32,000 nucleotides of DNA from Nostoc punctiforme PCC 73102 (lineage in GTDB: Bacteria; Cyanobacteriota; Cyanobacteriia; Cyanobacteriales; Nostocaceae). The translations under genes and the position numbers were made by a program. The notes under the pieces were generated by a model. It was given only the letters and a program-made list of their open reading frames with translations. It was not told where the DNA came from and searched no databases. The stretch lies in the NCBI RefSeq assembly GCF_000020025.1, contig NC_010628.1, forward strand, positions 4,230,001 through 4,262,000, given 5' to 3'. Shown here one piece after another: positions 2,302 to 29,594 of the stretch (its first letter is position 1; each line of letters starts with the position of its first letter).

Positions 2302-3057
2302 TCAAGCATCAGGAGTAGAAGCCGTTCTCTCTTCTAGCCAATTTATGAAGAGAAATTCTAAAATCTGCTCTCTGATTTCACTCAAGTCAGATGGAAACCA
2401 CTTCTCAACTCTAAGGATGTGATAACCAAGTTGAGTTTGAATTGGGCCTACTAATTCACCTACATCAATATCAGCAATAGCATTTGTAATCTCCGGTAAC
2501 AATTCTGTTAAAAACCGAATACCAACAAAAGCACCATTTTCTTTAGACTGCTTACCCTGAGAGTATTCTAAAGCTAATGCACAAAAAGAATCTTTTTTGT
2601 CCCGAAGCGCTTTAGTGATTTTCATTGCTTCTGTCAAATCACGAACAAGGATCTGAGACAAAGCCACCCGCTTATAACTATCCCGGTTATTTATATAATG
2701 ATCGTCCACCGCCACACCGAAAAGATGTTCTTTCAACTTTTGAGATAGCAATGATATGCGAATGATTTCCGACCAATCCTCTACACTAATGCGCTGATGT
2801 GCTAGCCATGCCAGAGTTTCAGATGTTCCCAGCAATTTGTTTTCTTGGCGAAATGTATCGCCTGCTGCTTGTAACTCTTCGTCTGTCACTTTAATATCTA
2901 GCTGTTCGCATAGTTTCAAAGTCAGAATATTTCTTTCAGCAGCAACAGCAATTTCAGCTATTTTGCAAGAATGGCGCAGGTAAGCAAGGATATCTTCATC
3001 ACGTGCAGGTGTAATTTCTGGAAATGTAAGTTTTTCTAAAGAGTGTTGCATGGTCAT
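2302..3057 (-). CDS. Parvulin-type peptidyl-prolyl cis-trans isomerase (PpiC/SurA-like) with an N-terminal helical domain
   Basis: 251 aa. The C-terminal GAFVGIRFLTELLPEITNAIADIDVGELVGPIQTQLGYHILRVEKW resembles the rotamase consensus (G..G.f......pe...a.f.l..Ge..gPv.t..GyHii.v). Confidence 0.7.
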   Translation of the reverse strand: MTMQHSLEKLTFPEITPARDEDILAYLRHSCKIAEIAVAAERNILTLKLCEQLDIKVTDEELQAAGDTFRQENKLLGTSETLAWLAHQRISVEDWSEIIRISLLSQKLKEHLFGVAVDDHYINNRDSYKRVALSQILVRDLTEAMKITKALRDKKDSFCALALEYSQGKQSKENGAFVGIRFLTELLPEITNAIADIDVGELVGPIQTQLGYHILRVEKWFPSDLSEIREQILEFLFINWLEERTASTPDA

Positions 3058-3151
3058 AGTATGTAATTCTGATCAAAATACATAATTTGTATCTTGTTGT
3101 GCAGTTATAGCCAGAAAATATTAACTATTAACTGCCTTGTATTTTTTTGAT

Positions 3152-4168
3152 TTAGGAGCGATAAATCAAGTTTTCTGGCAAAATATTTTTGATAGAAAGT
3201 TGATTGCGGTGTAAATCTCCATACAAATTCAGGTAATTAATTTCGGCAGGCGTAAGTTTGCCTTGCTTGACACTAGAAATGGCTGCATCAATTTCTTCCC
3301 GACGTTGCCATCCAGCCAAGCAAACATCTACACAGTTCTGGCTTAAAGAGTAGCGATATAAATCAGGTACTGAAGGCTGCCAACAATTTTCTGGCAGACC
3401 TTGGGGAGGGTTCCAAAGAGCGCCTGTATGAGAGCCTGTAGATTTAAAAGTAACGATACCTGGTCTATGAGAGTCTTGGGAGTCTAGTTGATTAAACAGT
3501 TGCGATTGAGCAGACTTATGAGCAACATTGTGTCTAACCATTACTACATCTAATAAAGGGCTGTTAGACCATTGTTGAGCCAGATTCATATCATGAAAAG
3601 ATGCTCCGACATAGCGAACAGCTCCCATTTTCTTAAGGCGTTCTGAAATTCCAACTATTTTTTCAATACTACGCTGATATACAGAATTAGCTCCTTTTAA
3701 ATCAGGAGACAGCTGTAAACAATCTTGTAAAGCTGACCCATCCTTAGAACCGATCCAGCCCCAGAAAAACACATCAATATAGTCAATACCTAATTCTACA
3801 AACTGATCGAGCAGTGCTGCGATCGCCATGTCTGGACTTTTAATGTAAGTTACTGTCGCTAGCACTACTTTCTCTCGCACCAAGGAACCACGTCCACACA
3901 TCTGGCGCAGTGCTCCAGCCATTGAGCTATAGATATAATGGTGCAGGTCACTGGAGTAAAAAAAGTAGTTAATTCCTTGGTCAAAGGCGTAAAGCGTATC
4001 CTCACTGGAAATGCTTCCACCACCTCCTAAGCCAAGACAGCTAACTGTTAAGTCAGTTCGCCCTAATTTTCGGTAGAAAGGTAAATCTGATTTTGGGAAT
4101 TTAGCATTTAGAGAATCAACTCCATCTGATTTGATTAAGGATTGTGGCGTAAGATTAGTTATTAGCAT
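3152..4168 (-). CDS. Aldo/keto-reductase-like oxidoreductase
   Basis: 338 aa. The N-terminal YRKLGRTDLTVSCLGLGGG is like the AKR start motif. Later IDYIDVFFWGW and VRYVGASFH resemble AKR TIM-barrel strands. Its ATG overlaps the stop of the upstream HopA1-like gene by 7 nt (ATGCTAA). Confidence 0.6.
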   Translation of the reverse strand: MLITNLTPQSLIKSDGVDSLNAKFPKSDLPFYRKLGRTDLTVSCLGLGGGGSISSEDTLYAFDQGINYFFYSSDLHHYIYSSMAGALRQMCGRGSLVREKVVLATVTYIKSPDMAIAALLDQFVELGIDYIDVFFWGWIGSKDGSALQDCLQLSPDLKGANSVYQRSIEKIVGISERLKKMGAVRYVGASFHDMNLAQQWSNSPLLDVVMVRHNVAHKSAQSQLFNQLDSQDSHRPGIVTFKSTGSHTGALWNPPQGLPENCWQPSVPDLYRYSLSQNCVDVCLAGWQRREEIDAAISSVKQGKLTPAEINYLNLYGDLHRNQLSIKNILPENLIYRS

Positions 4169-5280
4169 TCGTTCAATAACTGATAAATATTTTCCGAGTT
4201 AGCATTCAAGTAGACAGATTGCAAATCAATTCCCGCTAGAGAAAATTGCTCATGGATAGCCTGCATCCGTCCCTCTGGGGAGTCATCTCCTTGATACCAA
4301 GCTTTTAGTAATCCATTCGCCACAATCTGACAACGATTCATCCCAAAACTTTCCTGTTCAGCAAACTTTTTGTCTGGTTCTTCTGCTAACCCTAATCCTG
4401 GTAGAAGCTGCATCGTGAATAAAGGAACCTCTGGCTGAAAATAAGATTTATTTTCTCTATATACAACTTGTAAAACTTCTTTAACTACCTGATAATCCCT
4501 CTTATCAAAATACAAAACCCCTGAATCATGCCGTCCATAATCTTTTGGATTATACAAAACCTTAAAACTAAAAGGAATTGCTAACTTATTCAGTTGCTGT
4601 GTCAGACTCCTCATTACTGTCACAGCACCTTCAGGAGTCAAATTAAAATAGATTCGCACAGTTACTAATGGGTCGTTAGCATCCAGTAAACGAGTAAATC
4701 CTTGATTACCAACTGCCATATAAAAGCCATTTTGTACCCGATTTTTAGGCATCCGAATAGCTACCATATCACCTACTTTAGCGTCTTGGTCAATAGCTTG
4801 AAGATGCTTTTCAGGATGAATATGTAACCTCAAACCACCCTTTGTTACTACTAAACTACCGTCTATTTCTTCTTTAATAACAGACCAACCAAGGTCAAAA
4901 TTGCTGTCTCCACAATTACTTTCATGTAATTGCTCATACAATTCCAAATCTATTCCTAGAAAAGTATTATTTTCCAAATCTATGAGCAAACTATTTTCTT
5001 CTCCATCTAGTGCTAAAGCACTTCGCATAGAACCGTTGTAATATATCCCATAGAGAAAAGCCCGCAATTGCAGACTCAGATATTTCTGTTGCATCTGGGG
5101 TGGCATATTCTGAAAACGTTCAACTATCTCAGATGATAATTCCAAAGGTTTGTAATCTGGATGGTGGATGGAAAAATCAGATTTTATCTCAATTTTTTGA
5201 GCAATATCTTGTAAAACATCCAGTAATTGCCCAGTTAATCCAACCTCTAATTGAGTTTGGGAAGAATTTAATAATTGCAT
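4162..5280 (-). CDS. HopA1-effector-family-like protein (candidate phospho-Ser/Thr lyase partner of the adjacent kinase)
   Basis: 372 aa. Motifs I recall from HopA1-family proteins are present: VRIYFNL, FKVLYNPKDYGRHDSGVLYF, GLAEEP....ESFGMNRC. It is immediately downstream (28-nt gap) of an APH-like kinase, as in known kinase/HopA1-like dehydratase pairs. The assignment is from memory and needs an HMM check. Confidence 0.55.
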   Translation of the reverse strand: MQLLNSSQTQLEVGLTGQLLDVLQDIAQKIEIKSDFSIHHPDYKPLELSSEIVERFQNMPPQMQQKYLSLQLRAFLYGIYYNGSMRSALALDGEENSLLIDLENNTFLGIDLELYEQLHESNCGDSNFDLGWSVIKEEIDGSLVVTKGGLRLHIHPEKHLQAIDQDAKVGDMVAIRMPKNRVQNGFYMAVGNQGFTRLLDANDPLVTVRIYFNLTPEGAVTVMRSLTQQLNKLAIPFSFKVLYNPKDYGRHDSGVLYFDKRDYQVVKEVLQVVYRENKSYFQPEVPLFTMQLLPGLGLAEEPDKKFAEQESFGMNRCQIVANGLLKAWYQGDDSPEGRMQAIHEQFSLAGIDLQSVYLNANSENIYQLLNEC

Positions 5281-5308
5281 AATTTTTATTTAGTAATCAC
5301 AAAATGAT

Positions 5309-6469
5309 TTAAACAGGAGAATTATTTAGATGGCCTAATTCAACAGCAGCAGCACCAAAAATTGTTGGCATCGATTGTACAGGACGGCTTAATAACGTCT
5401 TAGCAACCTGAAGCATAGCAATCCCCATATTGCCAAAAGATTTTTGATATTGAATCATCGCCTGAATTTGTTGAATCAACGTAAAACCCGTAAATTGCAC
5501 TACCCGTTGCAAGAAATCAGAGCGGTGGTCTAGAATTTCTGGAAAAGTCTTCAAATAAGCTTGGGTTAATGTACTAATTGAAGGCTGAAGTACTTCTAAA
5601 GGTGTAATTGCCAAACGTAGAGACTCTTCAATACTCAAAGAATTACTAATAACCAAGCTACCCAACCAGATTTGGACATAGCTGCTAATTAGTGTTCCTA
5701 AATCAAAAGCTGGATCTCCCCAAGCAGAGCGTTCCCAATCTATTAGCCGGACAATATTGTTACTAGAATCTTGCCAATCTTTGTGCAGGAGAATATTATT
5801 TAGTTTTAAATCATTATGGGTGAGACAAGAGGGTGTTACAGCATTGCCCAATTCGGCGATCGCTTGCCCCAAGCTATCATAACGTTGATAGAGAGCAAAA
5901 AACTTTAACCCATCGCTAGGAACTATACCAAAAATTTCCGGTTCAACCCGTTCTAATCTGCGAACTAAATGTAATACTTGATCGCCCATTAAATTATCTG
6001 AATTTTTAGTAAAGAATTCCTGATATTCTTGGCGGTTGAAAGTATCACGATGGATAGTCCCTAAAATATTACCAATTGCCGTAGCGATTTCTATATTAAA
6101 GCTATTTCCCTTGGTATAAAAATCCATTAAATCCCGATAATCATCGAAATATTTAAAGACAATAATGGAATTTTCGACATCAAAATGCAGTACTTCTGGT
6201 AAAAATGAACGGTAGTTGCTAAGGTTTGGAAATTGTTGTAAAAACTCTTGAATTCGCCACTCAATTAAAAATTCACCAGCCGCTTTCCCTTCGGGATTGT
6301 GTCGTTCTTGTTTAACTAAAAGTTTGCGATCGCCTGGTAAAGTCACTAATAAGTTGAAATTCTTGGCTGTAAGTTGTTCTATTTTAGCGGGAGGTTGCTC
6401 GGATTGATTACATAATCCTTTTTCAAGCAAATAATTGAAAACATTCTGTGAATTTAAGATAAATGTCAT
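5309..6469 (-). CDS. Aminoglycoside-phosphotransferase (APH)/MtnK-like kinase-fold protein
   Basis: 386 aa. It has the catalytic-loop-like LTHNDLKLNNILL (HxDxxxxN) and the metal-binding IDWERSAWGDPAFDLG (DWE...GDP..DL) characteristic of the APH/choline-kinase fold. Confidence 0.8.
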   Translation of the reverse strand: MTFILNSQNVFNYLLEKGLCNQSEQPPAKIEQLTAKNFNLLVTLPGDRKLLVKQERHNPEGKAAGEFLIEWRIQEFLQQFPNLSNYRSFLPEVLHFDVENSIIVFKYFDDYRDLMDFYTKGNSFNIEIATAIGNILGTIHRDTFNRQEYQEFFTKNSDNLMGDQVLHLVRRLERVEPEIFGIVPSDGLKFFALYQRYDSLGQAIAELGNAVTPSCLTHNDLKLNNILLHKDWQDSSNNIVRLIDWERSAWGDPAFDLGTLISSYVQIWLGSLVISNSLSIEESLRLAITPLEVLQPSISTLTQAYLKTFPEILDHRSDFLQRVVQFTGFTLIQQIQAMIQYQKSFGNMGIAMLQVAKTLLSRPVQSMPTIFGAAAVELGHLNNSPV

Positions 6470-6482
6470 AGGTCTTAATCAA

Positions 6483-6683
6483 TTAGTTGTAACTTTTGAA
6501 GATACCAGCTTCCTTCTCAATGCGATCTAAAGCCTTCTTTGCTCTAAAAATCAGCCGCAAATAGTTTAACTGACTATTCCAAGCTGAACGAGGTAACAGG
6601 GTTAGTAAAGGCTCTACCTCATTCTGGGATTGTTCAATATGAGTAATATTCGGATCTTCTGGAGGGATAAATTTACTTGACAT
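6483..6683 (-). CDS. Hypothetical 66-aa protein translationally coupled to the rSAM gene
   Basis: Its ATG lies 1 nt after the rSAM stop (TAA T ATG), and its stop is 13 nt before the kinase ATG. I recognise no motif. Confidence 0.45.
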   Translation of the reverse strand: MSSKFIPPEDPNITHIEQSQNEVEPLLTLLPRSAWNSQLNYLRLIFRAKKALDRIEKEAGIFKSYN

Positions 6684-6684
6684 A

Positions 6685-7974
6685 TTATTTATCTGAATGA
6701 GATTTAGAACTAACTAAGGATGAAACTAATGGTTCTTCTTTCCAACCTTCTGGCCATTGAATGCGATCGCTAGTAAAATGAAGTGGATCGTTTTCAGGCC
6801 AAGCGGTATTAATCGGTTCCTCAATCAGAGCAAACTCGCCATTATCAAAGGGATTTCCATCTGCACGACGTTGAAGAAATACTCGCTCTCGAATACCGCC
6901 TTTTTCCTGAGTGAGGGCGCGATGATGGCAGTAAGGATTGTTACCTCGTTTATCAAAGAAAACGTGAGCAGTCCAACTGCAACCACCTCGACAGAGTTCC
7001 GCAAATTCGCAAGACTTGCAGAAACCCCATAAATGTGATGTTCCTTTGGGAGTATCAGCTTCGAGATTGAACCGTAGTTCTTCAGTTTCTTCAATAATTG
7101 TCCGCAGTGAATGGTCACGGATGTTACCACCAGTGTAGGCTGTGGTCGGTAGTGAGGGACAACCTTTGATAGCACCATCGGCTTCAATACCTAAAGCAGA
7201 CAGTCCAGCGCTACATCCCTGCCAAAATGACCAAGCATCTCCACCCCGTAGCAGTCGTTCATAGGGCCCGTAGTAGCCGATGTTATTCCCAGGCTGTATC
7301 TGCACCCCTTCTTCCTTGGCGCGTTCAGCAACACGAGCAATCATTGGGTATATATCCAATAGTTCGTAAGGTTGCAGCAGAATATCACCATTATCAGCAG
7401 CATTGCCCATCGGTACAGTTAACTGAATTTGCCAAGCGAATACTCCAGCGTCGCGGATACGCTCATAAATTTGGGGAAATTCTGGTGCAGACAGACGATT
7501 GATTTGCGTATTGCAGCCGAAAGGGATACCTGCTTCCTTAAGATTGCTCATGGTCTTAAACGCCCATTGCCACGAGCCTTGTTTGCCCCGCAGACGGTCA
7601 TGAGTTGCTTCTAAGCCATCAACCGACACAGAAACCACGCCAATACCAGCTTCTTTCATCCGGCGGGCTGTGTCTAAGGTGATACCATAACCCCCAGTAG
7701 TCATACCACACAACATCCCAGCTTTAGTAATTGCTTGGGCAATCTCTAACCAGTCAGGACGCAGAAATGCTTCACCACCAATTATGGTTACTTCTGTGAT
7801 TCCAACTTCCGCCATTTGTTTGACTAAATCAAGGGCTTCTGCTGTGGAAAGTTCGTTAGCCCTTGTATGACCCGCACGAGAACCGCAGTGTTGACAGGCT
7901 AGATTACACTTGAGTGTAATTTCCCAAACTGCATAACTAATTCGGCGATAAGTCATAAAAATACCCTCAATCAA
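6685..7974 (-). CDS. Radical SAM enzyme with a full SPASM domain (Nif11-class peptide maturase-like)
   Basis: 429 aa. It has the CNLACQHC (CxxxCxxC) cluster at residues 23-30 and the SPASM signature CSAGLSALGIEADGAIKGC ... CKSCEFAELCRGGC (Cx2Cx5Cx3C). An alternative start at 7956 (MTYRR) has a GAGGG Shine-Dalgarno-like motif. Confidence 0.9.
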   Translation of the reverse strand: MIEGIFMTYRRISYAVWEITLKCNLACQHCGSRAGHTRANELSTAEALDLVKQMAEVGITEVTIIGGEAFLRPDWLEIAQAITKAGMLCGMTTGGYGITLDTARRMKEAGIGVVSVSVDGLEATHDRLRGKQGSWQWAFKTMSNLKEAGIPFGCNTQINRLSAPEFPQIYERIRDAGVFAWQIQLTVPMGNAADNGDILLQPYELLDIYPMIARVAERAKEEGVQIQPGNNIGYYGPYERLLRGGDAWSFWQGCSAGLSALGIEADGAIKGCPSLPTTAYTGGNIRDHSLRTIIEETEELRFNLEADTPKGTSHLWGFCKSCEFAELCRGGCSWTAHVFFDKRGNNPYCHHRALTQEKGGIRERVFLQRRADGNPFDNGEFALIEEPINTAWPENDPLHFTSDRIQWPEGWKEEPLVSSLVSSKSHSDK

Positions 7975-8005
7975 TTAATTTTTCTACAAAGGGACGGATA
8001 AATCC

Positions 8006-8131
8006 CTATCTATCCCTAGTTTTAACTATTTGGTTACATTGTTCTTTGCTATTAACGCTTTCAATTTGATGACGAAACGCTTCATCATTTGCTAGATTTT
8101 CGTAGAAAGCTTTGACATTTTTTATGGGCAT
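8006..8131 (-). pseudogene. Truncated Nif11-type leader paralogue (41 codons, no core peptide)
   Basis: My own translation is MPIKNVKAFYENLANDEAFRHQIESVNSKEQCNQIVKTRDR*. This aligns with residues 1-37 of ORF 8288-8620 (MSLEHVKAFYQKLANDEAFSNQIQGVNSKEECSQIVK). It then runs directly into a copy of that gene's 3' hairpin region. AGGAGA lies upstream of the ATG. Confidence 0.6.
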
Positions 8132-8225
8132 AAGATTCTCCTAACCTTGATTAATTAAATATATTTTTTACTTTTATGCATGATTTTTTTATCTGTCATT
8201 TCGATTCTCTTGTGAATTTATAAAA

Positions 8226-8249
8226 GGACGGACAAGTCCCTATCCGTCC
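8226..8249 (-). terminator. Candidate intrinsic terminator/attenuator after the Nif11 precursor gene
   Basis: The minus strand reads GGACGG-ATAGGGACTTGT-CCGTCC followed by TTTTATAAATT. A diverged copy (7989-8016) follows the truncated leader, just upstream of the rSAM gene. Confidence 0.55.
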
Positions 8250-8287
8250 CCAGAATTTTAAACTGTTATGGTCGCAATCCAGGTTCC

Positions 8288-8620
8288 CTAAAGTGTGTCA
8301 TCTACCCGGATAACTCCATACATAAGTTGGTAGGGTGGCCATACAACTCCATATAATGGTTGGATTCTTGGTTTCCCAGTTAATCCACCAAAAACTGCTG
8401 CTAGTTCTTTTTCACTTAAATCTTTGAGTTCACCTTCACCATCGGCAGATTCTAACAATTGAGCGGTATATTCTTCATACTCTTCTAGAGTGAAATCGTA
8501 GCCGGCAGCTTTAACTATTTGGCTACATTCTTCCTTACTATTAACGCCTTGAATTTGATTACTAAACGCTTCATCATTTGCCAGCTTTTGATAAAAAGCT
8601 TTGACGTGTTCTAGAGACAT
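8288..8620 (-). CDS. Nif11-like-leader RiPP precursor with double-glycine cleavage motif
   Basis: 110 aa. The N-terminus MSLEHVKAFYQKLANDEAFSNQIQGVNSKEECSQIVKAAGYDFTLEEYEEY fits the Nif11 leader family. LSEKELAAVFGG is a textbook LSxxELxxIxGG. The core is LTGKPRIQPLYGVVWPPYQLMYGVIRVDDTL. AAGGAG lies upstream. Confidence 0.85.
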   Translation of the reverse strand: MSLEHVKAFYQKLANDEAFSNQIQGVNSKEECSQIVKAAGYDFTLEEYEEYTAQLLESADGEGELKDLSEKELAAVFGGLTGKPRIQPLYGVVWPPYQLMYGVIRVDDTL

Positions 8621-8676: not shown

Positions 8677-9114
8677 TTAGCCGGCAGCGAGGTTTGACAC
8701 TTCAATGGTTACTTCAGACGGATTGTAGTTATCTGTAATTACTTGCGGACAACGCATACAAGCTGCTTTGCCTTCTTGGTTCCACCACCGACAATCTCGG
8801 CGGATAGAACAAGGAGGCAATTCCTCTGCAACTACGGTTAATTTTCCGGCAATTTGCTTCGCTAGACGACAATCTTCTCCATCAAAATGCAGACAAGCTT
8901 TAGTGGCACAAGGTGCTGCTGTGCGAAAAATTTCAGCAGGTGTAACTGGACTAGCTTTTGCTATCAGTTCATCGGTGATAGGTATGGGTTGCTTGAGATA
9001 AGTTACACGTGGTTCTGCAACTGTTCCACTGATTATGCCGAAAACAACACTATTTTCAGATTCTGGCCTAGCACTGGGGCAAAGTGTAGTTTTATCCACA
9101 ACAATGTCTTCCAT
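8677..9114 (-). CDS. Cys-rich hypothetical protein (145 aa) between two precursor genes
   Basis: It has nine Cys, including APCATKACLHFDGEDCRLA and PPCSIRRDCRWWNQEGKAACMRCP. There is no signal peptide and I recognise no family. Confidence 0.55.
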   Translation of the reverse strand: MEDIVVDKTTLCPSARPESENSVVFGIISGTVAEPRVTYLKQPIPITDELIAKASPVTPAEIFRTAAPCATKACLHFDGEDCRLAKQIAGKLTVVAEELPPCSIRRDCRWWNQEGKAACMRCPQVITDNYNPSEVTIEVSNLAAG

Positions 9115-9258: not shown

Positions 9259-9504
9259 TCAGATAGAATTGTCAACTGCTACGAGTCCTATAGTAATAGG
9301 AGGAATAAAAATCTTACCAAGTATTATGGGAACCAATTTTGATTCTCCACCTGAAACGCTTTTTGCTTCCTCATCAGACATAGATAACAAAGCTTCTTCT
9401 GAATCCAAAACTTCGTTTCGACGTGTGACGGCATTTTTCACAGCATCATCAATCAAATCGTTAACTTCAATTTGACTGTGATACTTTCTTTCTTTAGCTT
9501 CCAT
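9259..9504 (-). CDS. Double-glycine-leader precursor (family C), hydrophobic Pro/Ile-rich core
   Basis: 81 aa. The leader ends LSMSDEEAKSVSGG and the core is ESKLVPIILGKIFIPPITIGLVAVDNSI. GAGGGAAA lies upstream. I prefer this minus-strand reading to the antisense ORF 9236-9475 because of the GG-leader architecture. Confidence 0.6.
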   Translation of the reverse strand: MEAKERKYHSQIEVNDLIDDAVKNAVTRRNEVLDSEEALLSMSDEEAKSVSGGESKLVPIILGKIFIPPITIGLVAVDNSI

Positions 9505-9899
9505 GTTGATTTCCCTCTGATTTTTTAACTATTTTTAGGCAATTGCAATTATTATATTTATCAGTGTAATTGCCTAGGATTTACTCATATTAGTAAATAA
9601 TAAAGCTAATTACTTGATTTTTTACAACTTTAAATTAGACAGAAATAAAACTTTTATGTCACTAAAAAACGATAATCTTTGCTTTGAGTTATCCATCTTT
9701 TTATATATGGGCATATACAAAAGTGTTGAATGTTAAGAAAAATCCGATAAAAATAGCCCAAAATATGACAGGTGAATTCTAGCTCCCGTGTTGAATTTGA
9801 GAGAGCCGCCGCCAACACAGAAACCATGTATCGATCATTTATAGCTGTTCTGCGTGACTTTTGGCGAATACTGCGACGAAAAGATGTTTCTCGTTCTAA

Positions 9900-10811
9900 G
9901 AGGTTGTTTGAAAAGTTCCCAGTTGATTAAAAAAAGCTCTCAGGGCATAAGCTGTAGATACGTATATACAGCACCATTGAGAGCGATGAGTAAAGCATAC
10001 TCTAGTAACCTGACCCAAAGTCAATTCGAGTTAATTGAACCGCTGATCCCTGTGGCTAAATCTGGTGGTCGTCCACGAGAAGTAGAAATCTGGGCAGTGC
10101 TAAACGCCATTTTTTATGTACTGGTTCAAGGCTGCAAGTGGCGAGACCTACCTGAGAATTTCCCGGCATGGCAGACGGTGTATACATATTTCCGTAATTG
10201 GCGTATTGATGGGACGTGGATAGAAATCCATGATCGTCTACGGGCATGGACAAGAGCGGATCATGAGCGATTGCCAAGTCCCTCTGAAGCCATAGTGGAC
10301 AGCCAAAGCGTTGAAACAGCAACTATGATTCATCAAGCCGTCGGCTACGACGCTGCCAAGAAGATCAAGGGACGCAAACGGCATATGACTGTCGATACAT
10401 TGGGTTTGGTGTTGCGCGTACTGGTGACTGCTGCTAATGTACCTGAGCGAGAAGGCGGCAAACAAGTCTTACTAAAAGTTCAACAGATGGGGAGTATGGT
10501 ATCTCGGCTGAACACGGTTTGGGTTGATGGCGGTAGGAACAGCGAGCCATTTATGCGTTGGCTCATGGATTTTTGTCGTTGGATTGTGCAAGTGGTGTTG
10601 CGACCTCAACACCACAAGAAATTTGTTTTGCTTACGAAACGCCCTTGTGGTTGAGCGTACTTTCGGTTGGCTCAACTGGTACCGCCGACTTAGCAAAGAA
10701 TATGAGCAATTACCCGAAACAACTGAGACTTTCATTTACCTTGCTATGATTCGGCTTATGCTCAGACGACTTGCATAATTTTTTACTGGCTTTCACTTTT
10801 CAAACAACCTC
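9900..10811 (+). mobile_element. IS5-family insertion sequence (912 bp) with 17-bp perfect terminal IRs and a TAA target duplication
   Basis: GAGGTTGTTTGAAAAGT (9900-9916) is the exact reverse complement of 10795-10811. TAA flanks both ends (9897-9899 and 10812-10814). Confidence 0.85.
9986..10778 (+). pseudogene. IS5-family DDE transposase, frameshifted near 10640
   Basis: MSKAYSSNLTQSQFELIEPLIP...GRPREV...KWRDLP...AIVDSQSVET...KGRKRHMTVDTLG is typical of IS5 transposases. The C-terminal [22 protein letters not shown] continues in another frame (ORF 10524-10778), consistent with a 1-nt indel in the cgccc run. Confidence 0.8.
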
Positions 10812-10863
10812 TAAGGCATTGAGGGCAATGCGACGTAGTAAAGCAAAGTTTTGTATCGACATT

Positions 10864-11095
10864 CAACATTTCTGGGACATATACTAGTACCGCAAGGCGG
10901 AAGTCAAAAGTCAAAATCCAAAAGTTAAAAGTTAAAAGTTTTATGGAATAAGCTCTTTAGGGATTTTCAATGATTGCTCTATTTACGCCGCCTTGTACTA
11001 GTTACTCAAGCTGTCAAATCTTTCCGACTAATTCAAATTAGATATCTCAGGCAATTTTGACTATTAACTAAAATATTTATGTCCCGAAAATGTTG
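10864..11095. repeat. MITE-like element with nested inverted repeats
   Basis: The outer IR is CAACATTTCTGGGACATA (10864-10881) against TATGTCCCGAAAATGTTG (11078-11095). The inner IR is ACTAGTACCGCAAGGCGG (10883-10900) against CCGCCTTGTACTAGT (10988-11002). There is no ORF inside. Confidence 0.4.
10903..10937. repeat. Heptamer tandem repeat (5 units), STRR-like
   Basis: The units are GTCAAAA GTCAAAA TCCAAAA GTTAAAA GTTAAAA. Confidence 0.6.
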
Positions 11096-11744
11096 CCAAT
11101 TTATATATCATGTCCGCTTGAGCAGAAAAAACAAGCTTATTGATACTATAAATTACACGCTACCAAACCAATTTTTTCCACAACTCAACCCAACAAATTG
11201 AGCAAATATAAGCATTTGGGTAAGGCTGGAAGCCCTGCTCATATTGATGCTGTCCTCTCCGTCGCTAGAAGAACTCAAATCGATCACTTAACTTCCTGCA
11301 TCGACTCTCTTCATCAAAATTGGGTGGACTTGTACGATAGCCTCAAAGAGAAAAAGTAAGTCGAATTATCCGTTTTTTCGCCAACATGTGCCAAAAATGA
11401 TATCAACTCTGATATCAATGCCCGACCAGAGTAAGCGTTCACCACCGTAGATGGGCGGTTACGCCATCGCGCTGACGTGGGGAGCGCCAAAGCGCAGCTA
11501 TTCCAAAGGTAGTGCTAAAAATCAGCCAAAGTCGCCACTATAAGGAGTAACCCCCAAGCCTTGTACAGAGAAAGGATAGATATTTGCCAAACTTATCAAT
11601 GGGGGTGAAATTGGGATTTTCAGGGGTGTGAATGATAAGCGTGACTTAACTGAAGTAATTTTCGGGGTGGTTATTCACGACAGAATCAGGGTTTGGGACG
11701 ATGAGAACTGTTGGTATTTAGCGGCTTAATACGAACAGTAGAGA

Positions 11745-12335
11745 TTGGTAAAAATGCTGGTACGTCGTAAGAATGAGGATTACAGGTCACGGGAATATCT
11801 TACAGTACGTGAGGTAAATAGCATTCTACGAGGGGCAAAAGTTTACGGGCGGTACAAGGTGAGGAACTATGCCTTGGTACTGTTAATATTTCGCCACGGG
11901 CTGCGGGTGTCGGAGGCTTGCGATTTGCGATGGGATGCGATTTCATTTCTGGATGAGGAGATTTTTATCACGCGCAAAAAAGGGAGTGATAGCGGGGTTC
12001 ATCCGTTGCCTGTGGATGAAATCGAGGCATTGAAACAATTAAAGGAATTAAATATTGGTGGCAATTACGTTTTTATTGGGGAAAGGGGGGAGAGGTTAAC
12101 CCCGGCTGCGGTACAAAGATTGTTGACCAGGTTGGGGGAAGTCGCAGAATTAAACATTAAAATCCACCCGCACCAGTTACGCCATGCTTGCGGTTACTAC
12201 CTTGTGAATGAGGGGCATAGTACTAGATTTATTCAGGAATTTTTAGGACATAGAGATATACGCCACACCGAAAAATATACCAAAGTAAATTCCAAACGTT
12301 TTTCTGGTATCAAGTGGAACACAATTGATGAGTAA
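11745..12335 (+). CDS. Small tyrosine recombinase (FimB/FimE-size, phage-integrase family)
   Basis: 196 aa. It has GLRVSEACDLRW (the Arg I region) and HPHQLRHACGYYLVNEGHSTRFIQEFLGHRDIRHTEKYT (the HxxR ... H ... Y catalytic box), closely resembling the FimB/FimE C-terminus. An ATG alternative start lies at 11754. Confidence 0.85.
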   Translation: MVKMLVRRKNEDYRSREYLTVREVNSILRGAKVYGRYKVRNYALVLLIFRHGLRVSEACDLRWDAISFLDEEIFITRKKGSDSGVHPLPVDEIEALKQLKELNIGGNYVFIGERGERLTPAAVQRLLTRLGEVAELNIKIHPHQLRHACGYYLVNEGHSTRFIQEFLGHRDIRHTEKYTKVNSKRFSGIKWNTIDE

Positions 12336-15308: not shown

Positions 15309-16586
15309 TTACTGGATACAGTTGGGGGTAGCGTCAGGAGTAGCATCGGGATAAAAAGTACGGATACCGCCTTGTCTTCTGACAAATACGGCTTGAAAAG
15401 TTCTATTCTCATCTGTGATGCCCAGAAGACATGCTTGGTTAGTGGTGCTAGTGTTGGGGTTGTTCTTGTAACCTAAAGATGCGTTTGACAAAATTTCTTC
15501 AGCATTGAGGGTGTAAGGATAACCTTTGATAGTAGACTGAGCAGTGCCAGTACCTACCTTCATGACAACACCCATTGTGTAGACTGTGTTGGGAACAACT
15601 TCTTCCCTAAACGTATTATTATTCAGTCGTCCAGCTAAACCCTTATTTTGCAGTTCCACATAACGACCAACAAAATGTAGCCCACCAATAGAGCCTCCTT
15701 GAACTGGTTCTCCACAGAATACATGGTCAAAACCTGCGACATTAAACCAAAGATTGGTTAAATCGTTCAAGAAATCAGTATCTGAAGTACGACCTACTTT
15801 GAGATATCCTCCCACGTATGCTTTGATATTTGCCAAGACAGTAGGGTTATTCTGCATCATAGACTGGAAGCCAGTGCGACTGACAACAGTACCTGGAACG
15901 CTGCAAAGATTGACTACTGCTGTGTCAAAGCTATTGAGGGCTGGGGCGCTCGGTGTAACATCAGCCGGGCTACCATAGGCTAACCCGGATACAGGGTTGT
16001 TGATATCGTCAAACAAAGGTACAGAACCGGCTGGTAGAGAAGGAGAAGTGGAACCGGAAGAACCATAATCATTAATTATGATGTCATCAATGTTGGTTCG
16101 GTTTGCAGTTCCATCAGTCTTACGAATTTCACAGCGAACACTACCAGAGATGTTGGGTGTAAAAGTCGCTGTTTGCAAGGCTGTAGAAGTGGTATTGACA
16201 GTGGAGCCGATTTGTATCCATGAAGAGCCACTGTTAGTTGAACACCAAACACCCCAAGTAGTATTAGCGTCAGTACCAAACTTAGCGTATTTGATAGTAA
16301 TAGAGCCTGCACCTGTAGTGCGATCAAATCGCATCGTCACTCTACCACTATTACGAATGCGGGCAGACTTTGCACCATTTTTTCTGTCAGTGCTGAGATC
16401 ACCAATTAGAGCATCATTCAAATTCCATAAGCCTGTGCTGAGATTAACATCAGCATCTGCATAACTTGTTTTTGTACCACTCTCAAAACCTTCAGAAATT
16501 GTGGTGCTATTTGCACTAGTTACGCAAAGGGTAAGCAGTATAACTGCTCCTGTTGATACTTTTAAAGTGAAAGCTAACTTAGACAT
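15309..16586 (-). CDS. Secreted two-domain protein: N-terminal beta-sandwich-like module plus C-terminal EndoU/XendoU-like ribonuclease domain
   Basis: 425 aa. The signal peptide is MSKLAFTLKVSTGAVILLTLCVTSANS. A Gly/Ser linker GSSGSTSPS separates the domains. AGFDHVFCGEPVQGGSIGGLHFVGRY resembles the XendoU catalytic block (G-F-E-H-V-F-x-G-E ... G-x-H-x-W). Confidence 0.5.
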   Translation of the reverse strand: MSKLAFTLKVSTGAVILLTLCVTSANSTTISEGFESGTKTSYADADVNLSTGLWNLNDALIGDLSTDRKNGAKSARIRNSGRVTMRFDRTTGAGSITIKYAKFGTDANTTWGVWCSTNSGSSWIQIGSTVNTTSTALQTATFTPNISGSVRCEIRKTDGTANRTNIDDIIINDYGSSGSTSPSLPAGSVPLFDDINNPVSGLAYGSPADVTPSAPALNSFDTAVVNLCSVPGTVVSRTGFQSMMQNNPTVLANIKAYVGGYLKVGRTSDTDFLNDLTNLWFNVAGFDHVFCGEPVQGGSIGGLHFVGRYVELQNKGLAGRLNNNTFREEVVPNTVYTMGVVMKVGTGTAQSTIKGYPYTLNAEEILSNASLGYKNNPNTSTTNQACLLGITDENRTFQAVFVRRQGGIRTFYPDATPDATPNCIQ

Positions 16587-22165: not shown

Positions 22166-23333
22166 ATGGCAAAAAAGTACATTGTTGACTTGAATGAAGA
22201 TGAAGTTTCCCAACTGCAATCGATAATTAAGAAAGGTAAGCATAAGGCAAGAACCATAAGCCGTGCAAACATTCTTTTGATGGCTTCCGAAGGAGAAACG
22301 GATCAAGCGATCGCTAGCATAGTTAGAGCGCATGTTGCAACAGTGCAACGAATACGAGAAAAATTTGTCATTGGAGGGTTAGATTTTGCTTTAAAGGATG
22401 AAGTTCATCCACCAAAACATAAAAAATTAGATGAAAAGCAAGAAGCATTTTTGATTGCAACAGCTTGTTCTAATCCGCCAGAAGGAAGAGTGCGTTGGAC
22501 AATGCAATTATTAGCAGATCATTTAGTGAACGTTGGTATCATAGATTCAATCTCAGATGAAACAGTACGTCAAACTTTAAAAAAAATGAAATTAAGCCTT
22601 GGTTGAAAGAACAATGGTGTATTCCTGAAGTTAACGCAGAATATGTTTTCCGAATGGAAGATGTGCTGGATTTATACAATGAGCCTTATGATCCTAAACG
22701 CCCTGTAGTCTGCTTTGATGAACGTCCATACCAATTAGTAGAAGAAGTAAGACTTCCTTTGCCACCACAGCCAGAGCAACCTGAACGTTATGATTTTGAG
22801 TATAAACGTAACGGGACAGTAAATTTATTCGCATGTTTTCAACCCTTGGCTGGATGGCGGCATATCGAAGTTACAGAACGTCGAACTAAAGCCGATTTTG
22901 CTAAACAAATGAAAAATTTAGTAGATGTTTCCTACCGAGATGCCGATGTTATTCGTTTAGTAGTTGATAACTTGAATATTCATACACCCAATGCATTATA
23001 TGAAGTTTTTCCACCAGAAGAAGCACGTCGAATTATTCAAAAGTTAGAGTTTCACTATACTCCTAAACACGCTTCTTGGTGAGCCAGTGCGTTGGGCGGG
23101 TTCCCCGACTTGAAGCAACTGGCGAACCCGAAGGGCTGAATCAGGTAGAAATCGAATTATCTGTTTTATCTCGCCAATGTTTAGAACGGCGTATTCCTAA
23201 TGCAGAAACATTAACTTCTGAGATTGCCGCTTGGGAGAAAAAACGTAATCAGCAAAAAGCTAGTGTTTATTGGGGTTTTCAAACCAAAGATGCTCGCCGA
23301 AAAATGGAGCGTTTATATCCAAATTTAACATAG
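22166..23333 (+). pseudogene. IS630-family transposase, in three frames
   Basis: The HTH part is ORF 22166-22606. The frame changes at an A8 run (22579-22586), giving [15 protein letters not shown]. The DDE part (22603-23082) ends at ...TPKHASW. A 56-nt insertion then separates it from LNQVEIELSVLSRQCL (in ORF 23076-23333). Confidence 0.8.
23080..23135 (+). repeat. 56-nt mini-insertion element inside the IS630 transposase gene
   Basis: The sequence is TGAGCCAGTGCGTTGGGCGGGTTCCCCGACTTGAAGCAACTGGCGAACCCGAAGGG. Deleting 23080-23135 joins TGG to CTGAATCAG in frame (HASW-LNQVEIE). It is related to 24003-24060. Confidence 0.65.
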
Positions 23334-23434
23334 CAAAGTTAGCTTGGCAGACTACTAGTTGGGGTAAATTATGTCCTTCATTTTCTCAAAAGGACTTCAG
23401 AGATTAATTGTGGTTCAGCAATACCTCTGCCAAT

Positions 23435-24872
23435 TTACGAGGGTTCAACGCCACCAGAAACGGGATGAATACGTCCTAAAGCAGTAAGCTTGACAAAAAT
23501 CTTGGTTAATAAAATAGGCTCAGGGGTTTCTGGAAGCATTTTTAACATTTCACGAACATATCGAAGACCACGGTAGTAAGCCTTAAGATCAATAATGCCG
23601 GAGTCGGGATTATGTTGACGAAAATCAGATAGAAGATGATGGGATAAGTTGACCATAAAGAATGCCAAGTTAGCAGCATTAGTCACGGCAGCTTGGCTCA
23701 GGTTCATAAAATCTTCCAATCCCCAAAACTGTTTGTTTGGCATCTCGAAAGTTAAACTCGATTTGAAAGCGCAGTTTGTAGTAGTCGATTGTCTTTTCGT
23801 ATGACAATTTTAGGTCACTAGAAAATAGAATTACATGACTACGAGCATTAGTTTTGAGATTGGTTTTGACTAAAATAACTATATTTAGTGCTTGAGCAAA
23901 TTCCTTGTGAAGGAGAGTGCATTGATAAATATCAGTTTTGATATCCTCGTCAATGGTACTTTTACACAAATATGCGTCAGGTATATTACAATAATCCAGC
24001 TTGTCGCCCTTCGGGTTCAGCAGTCCCCTGCGACGGGAAACCCGTCTTCAGGGCTGCTTCACCGTATTTACGACGAGAGCGACGATTAGGGTCAGGGTTT
24101 TGGTAAGGTATGTATAGTGCCGAATCATGGTGCAATTTGGAAATTATGTGCAAGTTAACAAGACGTGCCATCTGCAAGGCATTATTGTTCCCAAAATGAC
24201 CATCTAAAACTAAGTAAGTTAGGGGGATAAAGTTAGCTATCAACTGGACTAACTCATTAATCATCTTCTTAATTCTTAGTAATTCAGATGTGAGAATTAC
24301 TTCTGTTTTATTTTTGTTCTTACTCCCTTTTGGTCGTCCACGTTTACGTTGAGCTTTAAGTTTTACTTCTGGAGTTGATGATGAGCTATTTTTTTCTACA
24401 TCGCTTTTAATCACCTGTTCTATTAAAATCGGAAATGAGTGTCTTTCTTGAACACTTACTAATGATAATGCAAAAAAAGATAGTCCTGATATCGGTTTAT
24501 TTACTAGACTAGAAAAAAATCTATCCAACCCATAAGTTTTTTTGCCTGCCTTACTGACTACAACTTCATCTCCTGCTAGCAAATATACCTCATTCGCACG
24601 GAACAAATGCTTGCGGAAAAATAGCCAAAACAATGGAGCCCAAGGTATTACTGTATGAAAGAACCTTAACATCGTCCGATAACTACCACCAGTCCTGTCC
24701 AACGAGAAATCCCCAACATCGTGACTCGGCCGCTCATTGCTAACATAGCCAGGATTATCTGGTTTAATTGCTGCATCGTTGTAGCGTTTATCTGCGGCAA
24801 GAGGCACTGTAACAGTGATAGGATGTCGGACATGGGCTGATTGTGGTTTTGAGTTGTCGTTGTGAGAGACAA
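23435..24872 (-). pseudogene. DDE transposase (IS4/IS701-like) split into four overlapping frames
   Basis: It is covered by ORFs 24872-24666, 24807-23986, 23969-23679 and 23743-23435. Motifs include LLAGDEVVVSKAGKKTYGLDRFFSS, YLVLDGHFGNNNA and YKLRFQIEFNFRDAKQ. Confidence 0.7.
24003..24060 (-). repeat. 58-nt mini-insertion element inside the IS4/IS701-like transposase gene
   Basis: The minus strand reads GAAGCAGCCCTGAAGACGGGTTTCCCGTCGCAGGGGACTGCTGAACCCGAAGGGCGAC. Deleting 24003-24060 fuses RRKYG to KLDYCNIPDAYLCKSTIDEDI in frame. It shares CGGGTT.CCCG.C......ACTG..GAACCCGAAGGG with 23080-23135. Confidence 0.6.
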
Positions 24873-24992
24873 TAACTCTACTACATCAGCCCTCTCTCTT
24901 CATCCTCTTATTTTGGCTAAGGTATTGGTTCAGTATAAGGCTTTCCGTATATATGCCGAATGGCACGCTTGAAAAGCCGAAACACTTGCGGT

Positions 24993-25893
24993 TTAAGCAG
25001 TTTGCAATTGTTTGCGTAATTCATGCCGGGGTTTGCTCATTAAGGGGTAAGCTTTCGGGCGACGTTTACGGACTCGTGGTTCATTTCTCGCAGGACGGTC
25101 GGGAACAGCCTTGTGAGCGATAACTTTAAGTTGCATTGCAATAAATTTGAAGACGTTTTGTTGAAGTTGCGGCTAACAATTCGGGAATAAAGTTATTTAA
25201 ATGATGGCAAGTAGCTTGCAGTGATAGGCGCAATGGAGGAGTACGGTAAGTAGTACCTGACGACCACATCAAACCACGAAGTAGATTGTAAGCAAGCAAA
25301 TAAACATAAATTTCTTTGCGTACCATTGAAGGAGTTTTACAGCGTAAAACATCCATTCCCAGAGTAGTTTTTAGATGTCTCAAATCTATTTCAACATCCC
25401 AACGTTTACCGTAAAGCCCAACAATATCCAGAGTTGAATAAGTTGTTATATCTAAGAGAGTAGTAATTAAACTAACTTGTTCAGTACGAAAGCCAGGAAC
25501 AACAATGTAATAATAAATTTCTCGTAGATTTATGGTTAAAGGTAGAGCATAAAATTCATCTTTACTCAATCCCTTTGGACATTTTTCAGGCTTATACCAA
25601 GTTACCAGCTTGTCACAACTTCCAACAATTTTACCTTTACGCATGGACGTTTTTCGAGCTTGACAATAAGAACTTGTATCTGTTGATGGAAGTTCTACTT
25701 CTTGTCCAGCCAAATAAGAAATGACTTTACTTACTGTATTGTGACAACTTTTATCAGTATCCAAAACCTGAGACAAAAACGCCCAAATCGTTACTATTGG
25801 GTCAAACAATTGTCGATAATATCTAATTTTTAGTTCCTTCATGGCTTGCTCAATTACACTTGTTGGTAATAGCTCTTTAAAAGGTAATCCCAA
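24993..25893 (-). pseudogene. IS4-family transposase remnant (internal deletion plus C-terminal frameshift)
   Basis: It has the N-terminal LLPTSVIEQAMKELKIRYYRQLFDPIVTIWAFLSQVL and C-terminal YGKRWDVEIDLRHLKTTLGMDVLRCKTP...YNL (YxxRWxxExxxxxxK). The tail PRVRKRRPKAYPLMSKPRHELRKQLQTA is in another frame. At 255 aa the ORF is too short for an intact enzyme. Confidence 0.7.
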
Positions 25894-28390: not shown

Positions 28391-28427
28391 AATAACCTGG
28401 TTTAGATTTCAGAAGTGAGGCAAAGGA

Positions 28428-29207
28428 TTAAGGGAGCAACTGTATCTCGCTGGTAATTTGCCACAATTCTTGAGACAAAGACTCTAGCAGGAGTGATTGG
28501 GCTGAGTGCAGGAAAAAATGGTTCCCAGGAAACATTTGTAATAAGAATGCAGCATTTGTCTGCTCCTGCCAAGCTTGGAGTTCATCGTAACTAACCTTGC
28601 GATCCTGTAAACCACCAAAAGCGGTGATGGGGCAGTTAAGTGGTGATTCGGTAGTGTACACATAAGTTTCCAGAACCGCAAAGTCTGCACGAAGAATCGG
28701 AACAAGAAGTTGCATCAGTTCGGCGTTTTCTAGCACTGCTTCAGGAGTCCCATTCAGACGGCGTAGTTCTTCTTTGAAAGCAGGTTCGCTTAGAGCATGG
28801 ATGGGTGGATCTGGATCGGGAATTTGCGGAGCGTGGCGACCCGAAACAAACAAGTGTATGGGTGACAAACTGTACTGTTTGCGAAGTAAACGGGCTAGTT
28901 CAAAGCTGACGATCGCTCCCATACTATGACCGAAGAAGGCGAATGGTTTATCTAAATGTGGAAGCAGGACTGGAGCGATCGCACTGATAAGGGGTTCTAA
29001 CTGCGAGAATAGGGCTGTCCTCATTTGCATACCTCGTCCAGGTAGTTCAATGGGACAAACTTCGACAGTTGTGGGTAGACTGTCTAACCATGTGCGAAAA
29101 ATGAGAGAACTACCACCTGCGTATGGGAAGCAGAATAAACGCAGCGAAGCTTGAGGATTTGGCTTGGGATAGGTAACGCAGAAGTTCAATGTTGGTGTTG
29201 TTGTCAT
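28428..29207 (-). CDS. Type II thioesterase (NRPS/PKS editing)
   Basis: 259 aa with LFCFPYAGGSSLIFRTW and the GHSMGA nucleophile motif. Confidence 0.9.
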   Translation of the reverse strand: MTTTPTLNFCVTYPKPNPQASLRLFCFPYAGGSSLIFRTWLDSLPTTVEVCPIELPGRGMQMRTALFSQLEPLISAIAPVLLPHLDKPFAFFGHSMGAIVSFELARLLRKQYSLSPIHLFVSGRHAPQIPDPDPPIHALSEPAFKEELRRLNGTPEAVLENAELMQLLVPILRADFAVLETYVYTTESPLNCPITAFGGLQDRKVSYDELQAWQEQTNAAFLLQMFPGNHFFLHSAQSLLLESLSQELWQITSEIQLLP

Positions 29208-29282
29208 GAATAAAACAGCCCGATAGAGAGCCTTTGGTAGGCATTCTTCCTTATAGTTAAAACCTCTTACTAATCAGTAGCG

Positions 29283-29510: not shown

Positions 29511-29594
29511 AATTTATCTCCTGCGATTTGCCTTGTACGATGTTAATTTAGTTCTTGTATTCTTATTTTCTCATTTTATGACTCACTTCTTTTG

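Follow-up and report, generated by a model that had tools for sequence, protein, structure and literature searches.

A probable type I spliceotide cluster flanked by two other peptide modules in Nostoc punctiforme PCC 73102

What does a radical SAM (rSAM)/SPASM enzyme do to its substrate when the neighbouring Nif11-type precursor carries two near-identical (L/M)YGV(V/I) motifs in its core, and what is contributed by a 66-aa open reading frame that begins directly behind the enzyme gene? We address these questions for a locus of Nostoc punctiforme PCC 73102 in a window of 32,000 nucleotides (NC_010628.1, positions 4,230,001 to 4,262,000), within which all coordinates below are given; the features listed between 2302 and 9504 lie on the minus strand. 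A sequence-only reading had delineated precursor (A), enzyme (X) and small ORF (Y), all of which are present when the sequence is re-read, and had interpreted them as a crosslinking system. That interpretation was half right, as its views of the maturase, the partner, the substrate and the target motifs held, whereas the crosslink chemistry did not.

The locus is very probably a type I (three-component, cyanobacterial) spliceotide cluster, a placement made from a TIGR04103 match and gene order, with PlpX and PlpY compared by description. The A–X–Y trio is an uncharacterized member of an established RiPP class and the finding is not new: spliceotides were first described in 2018, and the locus has the type I anatomy of PlpX, PlpY and PlpA (Morinaka 2018). 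By itself the trio is of little consequence: its enzyme is already labelled by genome annotation pipelines, spliceotides have a rule of their own in antiSMASH, and their chemistry has been established since 2018.

The enzyme

X (6685..7956) is an rSAM/SPASM splicease homologue of 423 aa when read from its ATG. Its ORF extends to a TTG at 7974; the CxxxCxxC cluster (7885–7908) is C17/C21/C24 when counted from the ATG (7956) and C23/C27/C30 when counted from the TTG. Three observations make the ATG the more probable start: homologues are 419–421 aa long, they align from M1, and a GAGGG lies upstream of it. X scores 831.9 bits against TIGR04103 (nif11-class peptide rSAM maturase 3 equivalog), above the NCBIfam cutoff of 725, and so combines the CxxxCxxC cluster, a SPASM domain and the family match that mark the subfamily. 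We take TIGR04103 to be the InterPro subclass IPR026482 given for PlpX; in our literature search no paper named TIGR04103, and IPR026482 was found in one review only.

Pfam places Radical_SAM from residue 18 and SPASM at residues 254–322 (SPASM Cys region about 6928–7215), and the homologue alignment has seven invariant Cys in the C-terminal region, including CX2CX5CX3C. In a PDB search, SkfB from residue 113 onward and PqqE from residue 32 onward align from X residue 11. These alignment starts, together with the position of Radical_SAM, leave no space for an N-terminal RRE, and with the TIGR04103 score they bear out the earlier description of X as a peptide-modifying maturase that lacks one. 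The related loci that we compared are the best 80 of 380, in which X homologues from 80 species genomes are at least 84% identical to X. Among the matches listed they span Nostocales, Moorena, Microseira and Hyella; the closest Pleurocapsales locus of these 80 is from Hyella (L077, X identity 85%), and Pleurocapsa is not among them.

A conserved small partner

The start codon of Y (6483..6683) lies 1 nt past the X stop (TAA-T-ATG), and the two genes are translationally coupled. Y recurs in all 83 related loci among the matches listed, always on the X strand and, except in L079, directly downstream of X; across the loci listed it shares the strand of X in 85 of 85 cases, mostly less than 50 nt from the X stop. 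The ORF is a real gene, with homologues in 189 clusters whose named matches are all cyanobacterial, and the expectation that it would be conserved in related loci held throughout. About 32 residues are conserved, in the segment LLPRSAWNSQxxYLRxxFRAKKALDRIEKEAG, and the AlphaFold2 (AF2) model consists of a lone helix at residues 32–59 (6507–6590; pLDDT 87–97) behind a variable, disordered tail (residues 1–31) modelled with low confidence.

The PqqD/RRE fold is a winged helix of about 80–90 aa, with three strands and three helices in order. Y has neither this length nor this set of elements, 40 members of its family gave zero matches to PF05402 and related Pfam models even at E ≤ 10, and its family profile had no match in a PDB search. 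Together with the single modelled helix, these searches exclude Y as a PqqD-type RRE. As there is no detectable sequence similarity between Y and PqqD, we draw its putative mode of action from the literature, where PlpY and PcpY are essential for the activation of their enzymes, PlpY is judged too short to adopt the RRE fold, and a ‘structurally conserved helix’ activator model has been published. The disordered tail and confident helix of Y agree with that model. The earlier suggestion that the 66-aa ORF could supply a missing function is thus supported, with Y as a conserved partner that would provide it to X much as its counterparts do for theirs. The sharply conserved helix motif of Y is now defined and, together with the site map below, is relevant to splicease protein engineering.

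The precursor and its XYG sites

A (8288..8620; TIGR03798 57.2 bits, PF07862 62.8 bits) encodes a 79-aa Nif11-type leader that ends in GG (8384–8620) and a 31-aa core (8291–8383), LTGKPRIQPLYGVVWPPYQLMYGVIRVDDTL, which contains three Tyr and one Trp and is without Cys. Both LYG and MYG occur in it, the combination of Nif11 leader and XYG sites by which spliceotide precursors are recognized. Splicing at the predicted site L10-Y11-G12 (8348..8356; codons tta-tat-gga) would give α-keto-β-leucine, and at M21-Y22-G23 (8315..8323; codons atg-tat-gga) α-keto-β-methionine. A near-identical core is found in Nostoc sp. NMS8 (L006).

Across related loci the dipeptide YG is present in 125 of 125 distinct cores, compared with 23 ± 4 (maximum 37) in 1,000 composition-preserving shuffles of the same cores; a separate count gave 128 of 128, and YG is the sole invariant feature of the cores. 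That the duplicated (L/M)YGV(V/I) motifs are the targets, as had been proposed from the sequence, is well supported by this invariance. The residue before YG, over 212 sites, is L in 49% and M in 21%, and the site logo QP(L/M)YGV(V/I) sits in a wider context of P-x-x-Q-P-(L/M)-Y-G-V-(V/I), so that the census provides a natural-variation map of splice-site context. The core segments PRIQPLYGVVWP and LMYGVIRV are similar to the validated tags GGPIRPLYGLPI and AVAA(M)YGVVFP, from PlpA2 (PIRPLYGLPI) and PlpA3, respectively, and native PlpXY sites include both MYG and LYG.

Proposed chemistry and known systems

In the Plp pathway, tyramine is excised at XYG from Nif11/NHLP precursors by PlpX (WP_019503880.1), an rSAM/SPASM enzyme for which InterPro has a dedicated subclass, and plpY (product WP_019503879.1), a small hypothetical gene directly downstream, is essential for activity. 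From characterized homologues we infer the reaction, the role of Y as activator and the activity of the product: X most likely removes Tyr from Leu-Tyr-Gly and Met-Tyr-Gly to leave keto-amide β-amino acids. After translation of the Nif11-leader precursor A, the C-terminal amphipathic helix of Y would dock on X, activating it and bridging it to the precursor; for PlpAXY and PcpAXY an arrangement has been published in which the Y helix docks on X and a YG site lies beside the SAM cluster. X, with a SAM-binding [4Fe–4S] cluster at C17/C21/C24 and its SPASM clusters, would then excise C8H9NO, the equivalent of tyramine, from each of Tyr11 and Tyr22, and rejoining of the backbone would convert Leu10 and Met21 to α-keto-β-amino acid (ketoamide) residues. 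A C39-peptidase ABC exporter encoded elsewhere would then cleave off the leader at GG; neither a C39 exporter nor a leader peptidase was found in the window. The product would most likely be a serine/cysteine-protease inhibitor.

The closest described systems are the type I sets PlpA/PlpX/PlpY of Pleurocapsa sp. PCC 7319 and PcpA/PcpX/PcpY of PCC 7327, described by Morinaka et al. 2018 and Richter et al. 2024. In common with them, the locus has an rSAM/SPASM enzyme that lacks an RRE domain and is followed directly by a small ORF, a Nif11-type precursor whose leader has a GG site and whose core has LYG and MYG in a context near that of validated splice tags, and a cyanobacterial host. The present locus differs in its Nostoc-type host and in being known from sequence alone; no PlpD-like rSAM epimerase occurs among the window ORFs examined, one intact two-site precursor is accompanied by a deleted second copy, and two other peptide modules flank the locus. 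Type II systems from Rheinheimera (RhaX/RhaA, RasX/RasA, RcsX/RcsA) carry out the same net XYG chemistry, at MYG, LYG and DYG, and their ketoamides inhibit Ser/Cys proteases. They are without Y, a helix of the precursor leader filling the site on X that Y holds in type I, whereas a separate Y is found here in every related locus (83/83, among the matches listed).

The two-gene logic of a SPASM rSAM enzyme without a recognition domain and a small separate partner is also that of PqqE/PqqD. PqqE ranked second to SkfB in the PDB search and was alone in aligning near full-length (query 11–344). Nevertheless, PqqD has the complete winged-helix fold of an RRE in about 90 aa, whereas Y offers one predicted helix and no PqqD match, and PqqE makes a Glu–Tyr C–C crosslink rather than excising Tyr.

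Neighbouring peptide modules

Three distinct precursor-like peptide families lie inside one 9.5-kb stretch of the window. Upstream of A, orf81 (9259–9504) encodes a precursor-like peptide with a GG site and is paired with Cys145 (8677–9114), a 145-aa protein with eight invariant Cys. The pair is present in 63–65 of the 83 loci among the matches listed and, in L084 and L086, is found where there is no splicease, which makes it separable from A–X–Y. The orf81 leader is conserved (EINDLIDxAVxNAVxRRN...SDEEAKxVxGG) and its core is hypervariable and hydrophobic. Cys145 is highly conserved, in a family of 1,064 clusters at 50% identity, and is without a Pfam or NCBIfam family; a PDB profile search returned only noise, long family members carry no fused Pfam domains and the AF2 model (pLDDT 39) is unusable.

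Downstream of Y, Pfam and NCBIfam matches identify an APH-type kinase (5309–6469), a HopA1-type lyase (4162–5280; HopA1 domain 212 bits), a weak AKR-like protein (3152–4168) and a PPIC prolyl isomerase (2302–3057). These genes occur in only about 40 of the 83 splicease loci among the matches listed and follow a different precursor family: double-glycine peptides are encoded in 37 of 39 listed loci with APH/HopA1 and in 11 of 45 without. Their genes are co-directional with APH/HopA1 in 91 of 94 cases, and their cores are 18% Ser/Thr, with Cys in 20 of 95. Three such peptides are encoded in the window, at 464–703, 1435–1626 and 1800–2021. Searched against NCBIfam at E ≤ 1, the leaders of orf81 and of the double-glycine peptides returned nothing meaningful. 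The APH/HopA1/AKR/PPIC genes more likely constitute a separate module, and their membership of the spliceotide pathway is uncertain.

An APH-family kinase beside a HopA1-family protein is also the arrangement of LxmK/LxmX in class V lanthipeptides and of KinD/KinC, a likeness confined to these neighbour genes; in cyanobacteria, no RiPP call by antiSMASH is more frequent than ‘lanthipeptide-class-v’. As differences from class V systems, the LxmK model gives the kinase 85 bits against an NCBIfam cutoff of 315, no cyclase was recognized and most associated cores are without Cys. Both neighbouring modules are of more interest than A–X–Y itself. A tentative and rather speculative reading would make the window a three-module RiPP island, in which orf81/Cys145 represent an undescribed RiPP class or peptide–partner system and the APH/HopA1/AKR/PPIase genes make dehydrated linear peptides or a hybrid of ketoamide and dehydroamino acids. 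As late as 2022 no mature native spliceotide was known, and such recurrent neighbour modules might explain why they have been elusive.

Alternative readings

The chemistry first proposed for X was aromatic side-chain crosslinking within the YGV and WPPY motifs (cyclophane, Trp/Tyr C–C or ether bonds, at −2 Da per link), in the manner of triceptide-, darobactin- or dynobactin-type maturases. An aromatic-rich core with short repeats is what such enzymes would act on, and X has the general SPASM scaffold of DynA, PapB and WgkB. However, its matches to crosslinking families among those listed in NCBIfam are partial and far under the cutoffs, at 58–81 bits (DynA 60, WgkB 81), as against 832 bits for TIGR04103, and what the substrates conserve is Tyr-Gly rather than two residues to be linked, where the need for Gly and the L or M at −1 fit a splice motif. 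Nor does WPPY behave as a partner of the repeats, since close orthologues have R, F, I or M in place of its Trp15 and Tyr18 yet keep both YG sites unchanged, and in 48 cores YG occurs only once and further aromatic residues are few. Characterized relatives, moreover, take the Tyr side chain away rather than link it. Crosslinking is very improbable, and the expected mass change becomes −135.07 Da per Tyr-Gly site instead of −2 Da, with calculated core masses of 3586.937 Da unmodified, 3451.869 Da after one splice and 3316.801 Da after two. It is likewise very improbable that X has another substrate, with its adjacency to the Nif11 peptide incidental. The three precursor-like families within 9.5 kb would supply orf81-type or downstream double-glycine peptides as candidates, and lower-ranked NCBIfam matches to heme and PQQ cofactor rSAM families a non-peptide cofactor intermediate, but the latter reach at most 154 bits, far under their cutoffs. 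Of the peptides, orf81 is missing from about 20 of the loci listed and its pair with Cys145 persists where X is absent, and the double-glycine peptides follow APH/HopA1 rather than X, whereas a Nif11 precursor with XYG sites lies directly upstream of X in 81 of the 83 loci listed, which strengthens the earlier pairing by adjacency.

A further possibility leaves splicing in place and adds to it, with the APH kinase, HopA1 lyase and AKR-like protein tailoring the same Nif11 core, for instance through a dehydration that turns Thr2 or Thr30 into Dhb, or through reduction of its ketoamide. The genes follow Y co-directionally at spacings of 13, 28 and −7 nt, APH and HopA1 lie at most 7 kb from X in about 40 of the 83 loci listed, every core in such loci has at least one Ser/Thr, and according to the literature it is pairs of this type that dehydrate Ser/Thr in the class V lanthipeptides and in kintamdin. 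Even so, Ser/Thr content of Nif11 cores is barely different with the kinase (9.0%) and without it (7.8%), Thr30 varies among close orthologues and the pair is absent from about half of the splicease loci listed. With no meaningful Ser/Thr enrichment and a much stronger association with the double-glycine family, we rejected tailoring of the Nif11 core by APH/HopA1 as the working explanation, and a hybrid pathway of this kind is unlikely. Splicing at both XYG sites of A by X and Y is the reading that we prefer.

A hairpin and a precursor remnant

Just 3′ of the A stop codon lies a terminator-like hairpin (8230..8249) that probably acts as an attenuator between A and X; L004 and L006 have kept a hairpin of related sequence upstream of X. 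Between hairpin and X lies the remnant of a second Nif11 precursor (8006..8131; PF07862 37 bits over residues 1–38), of which about 38 leader residues are left. Aligned at the DNA level with L006 and L004, the locus has lost about 260 bp, a deletion that removed the remainder of this second leader along with its core and the spacer.

A spliceotide-like locus and its radical SAM enzyme

On every feature tested, the three minus-strand genes for the Nif11 precursor A, the rSAM/SPASM enzyme X and the 66-aa protein Y read, as judged from sequence, like a working type I spliceotide cluster, PlpX and PlpY being compared through their published description. Spliceotides were first described by Morinaka et al. 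(2018), and the published outline of these systems comprises an rSAM/SPASM 'X protein' (PlpX), precursors with Nif11 or NHLP leaders, and a small 'Y' gene immediately 3′ of X, initially unannotated and essential for activity. All the features noted in the sequence-only reading are present (the rSAM ORF, the 66-aa ORF 1 nt on, and the Nif11 precursor with its core), but the finding is not novel, because the class is established and antiSMASH carries a rule for it. The locus adds a new member, still uncharacterised, to a RiPP class already known, and the remaining novelty lies not in A–X–Y itself but in two neighbours, the orf81/Cys145 pair and the kinase/HopA1 genes with their double-glycine peptides.

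From its TTG start the ORF of X spans 6685–7974, with CxxxCxxC beginning at residue 23. The ATG at 7956, in frame and with GAGGG 5′ of it, gives a protein of 423 aa (C17/C21/C24) and is probably the true start codon, because homologues are 419–421 aa long and align from that Met. Pfam places Radical_SAM from residue 18 and SPASM at 254–322. In comparisons with solved structures, residue 11 of X pairs with residue 113 of SkfB, past the N-terminal RRE of that protein, and with residue 32 of PqqE; X therefore lacks an N-terminal recognition domain. For the NCBIfam equivalog model TIGR04103 ('nif11-class peptide radical SAM maturase 3'), whose cutoff is 725 bits, X scores 831.9 bits; we take this model to be equivalent to IPR026482, the InterPro subclass quoted for PlpX. 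The second-best family reaches 412 bits, under its own cutoff, and cofactor and crosslinking rSAM families reach at most 160 bits. These results uphold the earlier view of X as an RRE-less RiPP maturase, and X does not group with a non-peptide family such as those of cofactor biosynthesis.

In a pattern scan limited to a single genome of each species, X had 380 relatives, of which the best 80 were examined; these are 84–96% identical and come from Nostocales, Moorena, Microseira and Hyella. Such conservation is unusual, identity staying at or above 84% between cyanobacterial orders (best 80 of 380 relatives; loci L004–L083). Mean column identity is 92% for X in a seven-sequence alignment, and Y averages 53%.

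The partner protein Y

Y (6483–6683, minus strand) starts 1 nt past the stop codon of X. The related loci, a set of 83 that contains a few redundant contigs, all carry Y on the strand of X; it lies immediately 3′ of X in all but L079, and in about three quarters its start is no more than 50 nt past the stop codon of X. Homologues form 189 clusters, nearly all of 55–75 aa, and all named matches are cyanobacterial. This retention, together with the essential role of characterised Y counterparts, favours the suggestion that the 66-aa ORF is a partner supplying the missing function.

The approximately 30 N-terminal residues of Y are variable and the approximately 32 C-terminal residues strongly conserved (LLPRSAWNSQxxYLRxxFRAKKALDRIEKEAG). 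An AlphaFold2 model from a 40-sequence alignment contains one helix (residues 32–59, pLDDT 87–97) and a low-confidence tail. Among 40 Y members there was no convincing match to PqqD or other Pfam families, even at E ≤ 10, and the Y profile had no match in the PDB. A 2025 survey considers PlpY too small for an RRE fold, in line with the single helix predicted for Y and the failure of the searches to match it to PqqD. In the published outline of type I systems, Y proteins activate X and mediate its contact with A, the Y helix binding X where the leader helix sits in the Y-less type II systems.

Precursor cores and predicted splice sites

Precursor A (8288–8620, minus strand) matches TIGR03798 and PF07862 and carries a GG site followed by the core LTGKPRIQPLYGVVWPPYQLMYGVIRVDDTL. 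A terminator-like hairpin (8230–8249) directly 3′ of the gene fits the usual arrangement, in which precursor is abundant relative to enzyme. A second Nif11 precursor persists as a leader-only stump of 41 aa (8006–8131, minus strand); compared with L004 and L006, both Nostoc loci, about 260 bp has been deleted, taking the remaining leader and the entire core, and the stump terminates at a conserved hairpin-like sequence 5′ of the rSAM gene.

The survey of cores drew on all Nif11-type precursors in the window and in the 83 loci. At least one XYG occurs in each of the 128 distinct cores (two in 73, one in 48, three in 7), and under a stricter parse YG is found in 125 of 125 cores, against 23 ± 4 (maximum 37) in 1,000 composition-preserving shuffles. 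Gly directly follows 212 of the 280 core Tyr residues, and the site logo reads P-x-x-Q-P-(L 49% / M 21%)-Y-G-(V 69%)-(V/I 80%). The cores are otherwise hypervariable, in contrast to the conserved X. Published type I cyanobacterial spliceotides are described with Met or Leu as the native residue X of XYG; next to the experimentally accepted tags GGPIRPLYGLPI (PlpA2) and AVAA(M)YGVVFP (PlpA3), the window core has PRIQPLYGVVWP and LMYGVIRV.

The YGV repeats stand as the predicted target, as the sequence-only reading had proposed, but the chemistry assigned to them there, aromatic crosslinking at −2 Da per link, is contradicted by the low scores of the crosslinking families and by close orthologues of the LTGKPRIQPLYGVVWPPYQLMYGVIRVDDTL core, in which W and Y of WPPY change to R, F, I or M and both YG sites are constant. 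By analogy with spliceotides, Tyr would be expected to be destroyed rather than crosslinked, giving −135.07 Da per site instead of −2 Da. In the proposed splicing mechanism, the Y helix would dock onto X, which would remove tyramine from core Tyr11 and Tyr22, converting Leu10 to α-keto-β-Leu and Met21 to α-keto-β-Met; the predicted monoisotopic core mass is 3586.937 Da unmodified, 3451.869 Da after one splice and 3316.801 Da after two. A C39 ABC exporter would cleave the leader at GG; none was found within the window, and such exporters adjoin related loci. As characterised spliceotides are described as inhibiting Ser/Cys proteases through their ketoamide, the same function is likely for this product.

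Neighbouring peptide modules

Upstream, orf81 (9259–9504, minus strand) encodes a precursor-like peptide with a leader conserved up to GG (EINDLIDxAVxNAVxRRN...SDEEAKxVxGG) and a hypervariable, hydrophobic core with a recurring φ-G-(L/I)-(I/V) element. Its neighbour Cys145 (8677–9114, minus strand; 145 aa) is very conserved, with eight invariant Cys, and belongs to a family of 1,064 clusters at 50% identity. It matches no family in Pfam or NCBIfam, so its NCBI name, 'nitrogen fixation protein', appears unsupported; its AF2 model was unusable. The pair lies 5′ of the splicease genes in 63–65 of 83 loci. Loci that lack a splicease carry it too, in Microcoleus and in Calothrix PCC 7507, such copies being L084:5614–6426 and L086:5756–6438. 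The module could represent a RiPP-like system not yet described. Some distant, longer Cys145 relatives (P0361 and P0362) carry an N-terminal stretch resembling the orf81 leader helix, then GG, a low-complexity linker and a fused Cys-rich domain, an architecture that hints at joint action of peptide and Cys-rich protein.

Genes for an APH kinase, a HopA1-family protein, a weak AKR-like protein and a PPIC prolyl isomerase follow Y at apparent operon spacing (2302–6469). APH and HopA1 adjoin only about half of the splicease loci, and their presence showed no correlation with the Ser/Thr content of Nif11 cores. They track instead a third precursor family with double-glycine leaders (M(A/S)TIKISDL...ESYL...GG), present in 37 of 39 loci with the kinase versus 11 of 45 without it (Fisher p = 1.4e-11, uncorrected for phylogeny). 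Its cores are 18% Ser/Thr, and 91 of 94 of its genes are co-directional with the closest APH/HopA1 gene. The window holds three members on the minus strand (464–703, 1435–1626 and 1800–2021), one with a very Thr-rich core. We therefore provisionally assign kinase and lyase to a separate class-V-lanthipeptide-like module, the type most commonly called among cyanobacterial RiPPs by antiSMASH; the data suggest that kinase, lyase, AKR and PPIase form a dehydration-type RiPP module of their own rather than tailoring the spliceotide.

Surroundings of the peptide island

At the upstream edge of the island lie an IS4/5 transposase with DUF4096 (9854–10654) and a phage-type integrase (11745–12335). Mobile-element genes at 9854–12335 and 22166–25893, including further DDE transposases, flank the island and suggest a plastic genome region. 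Unrelated to it, 15309–16586 encodes a 425-aa protein with a C-terminal, toxin-like bacterial EndoU nuclease domain. Genes for a penicillin amidase, a type II thioesterase, an aldo/keto reductase and a methyltransferase stand in a row at 26267–31918 and may mark the border of another biosynthetic cluster.
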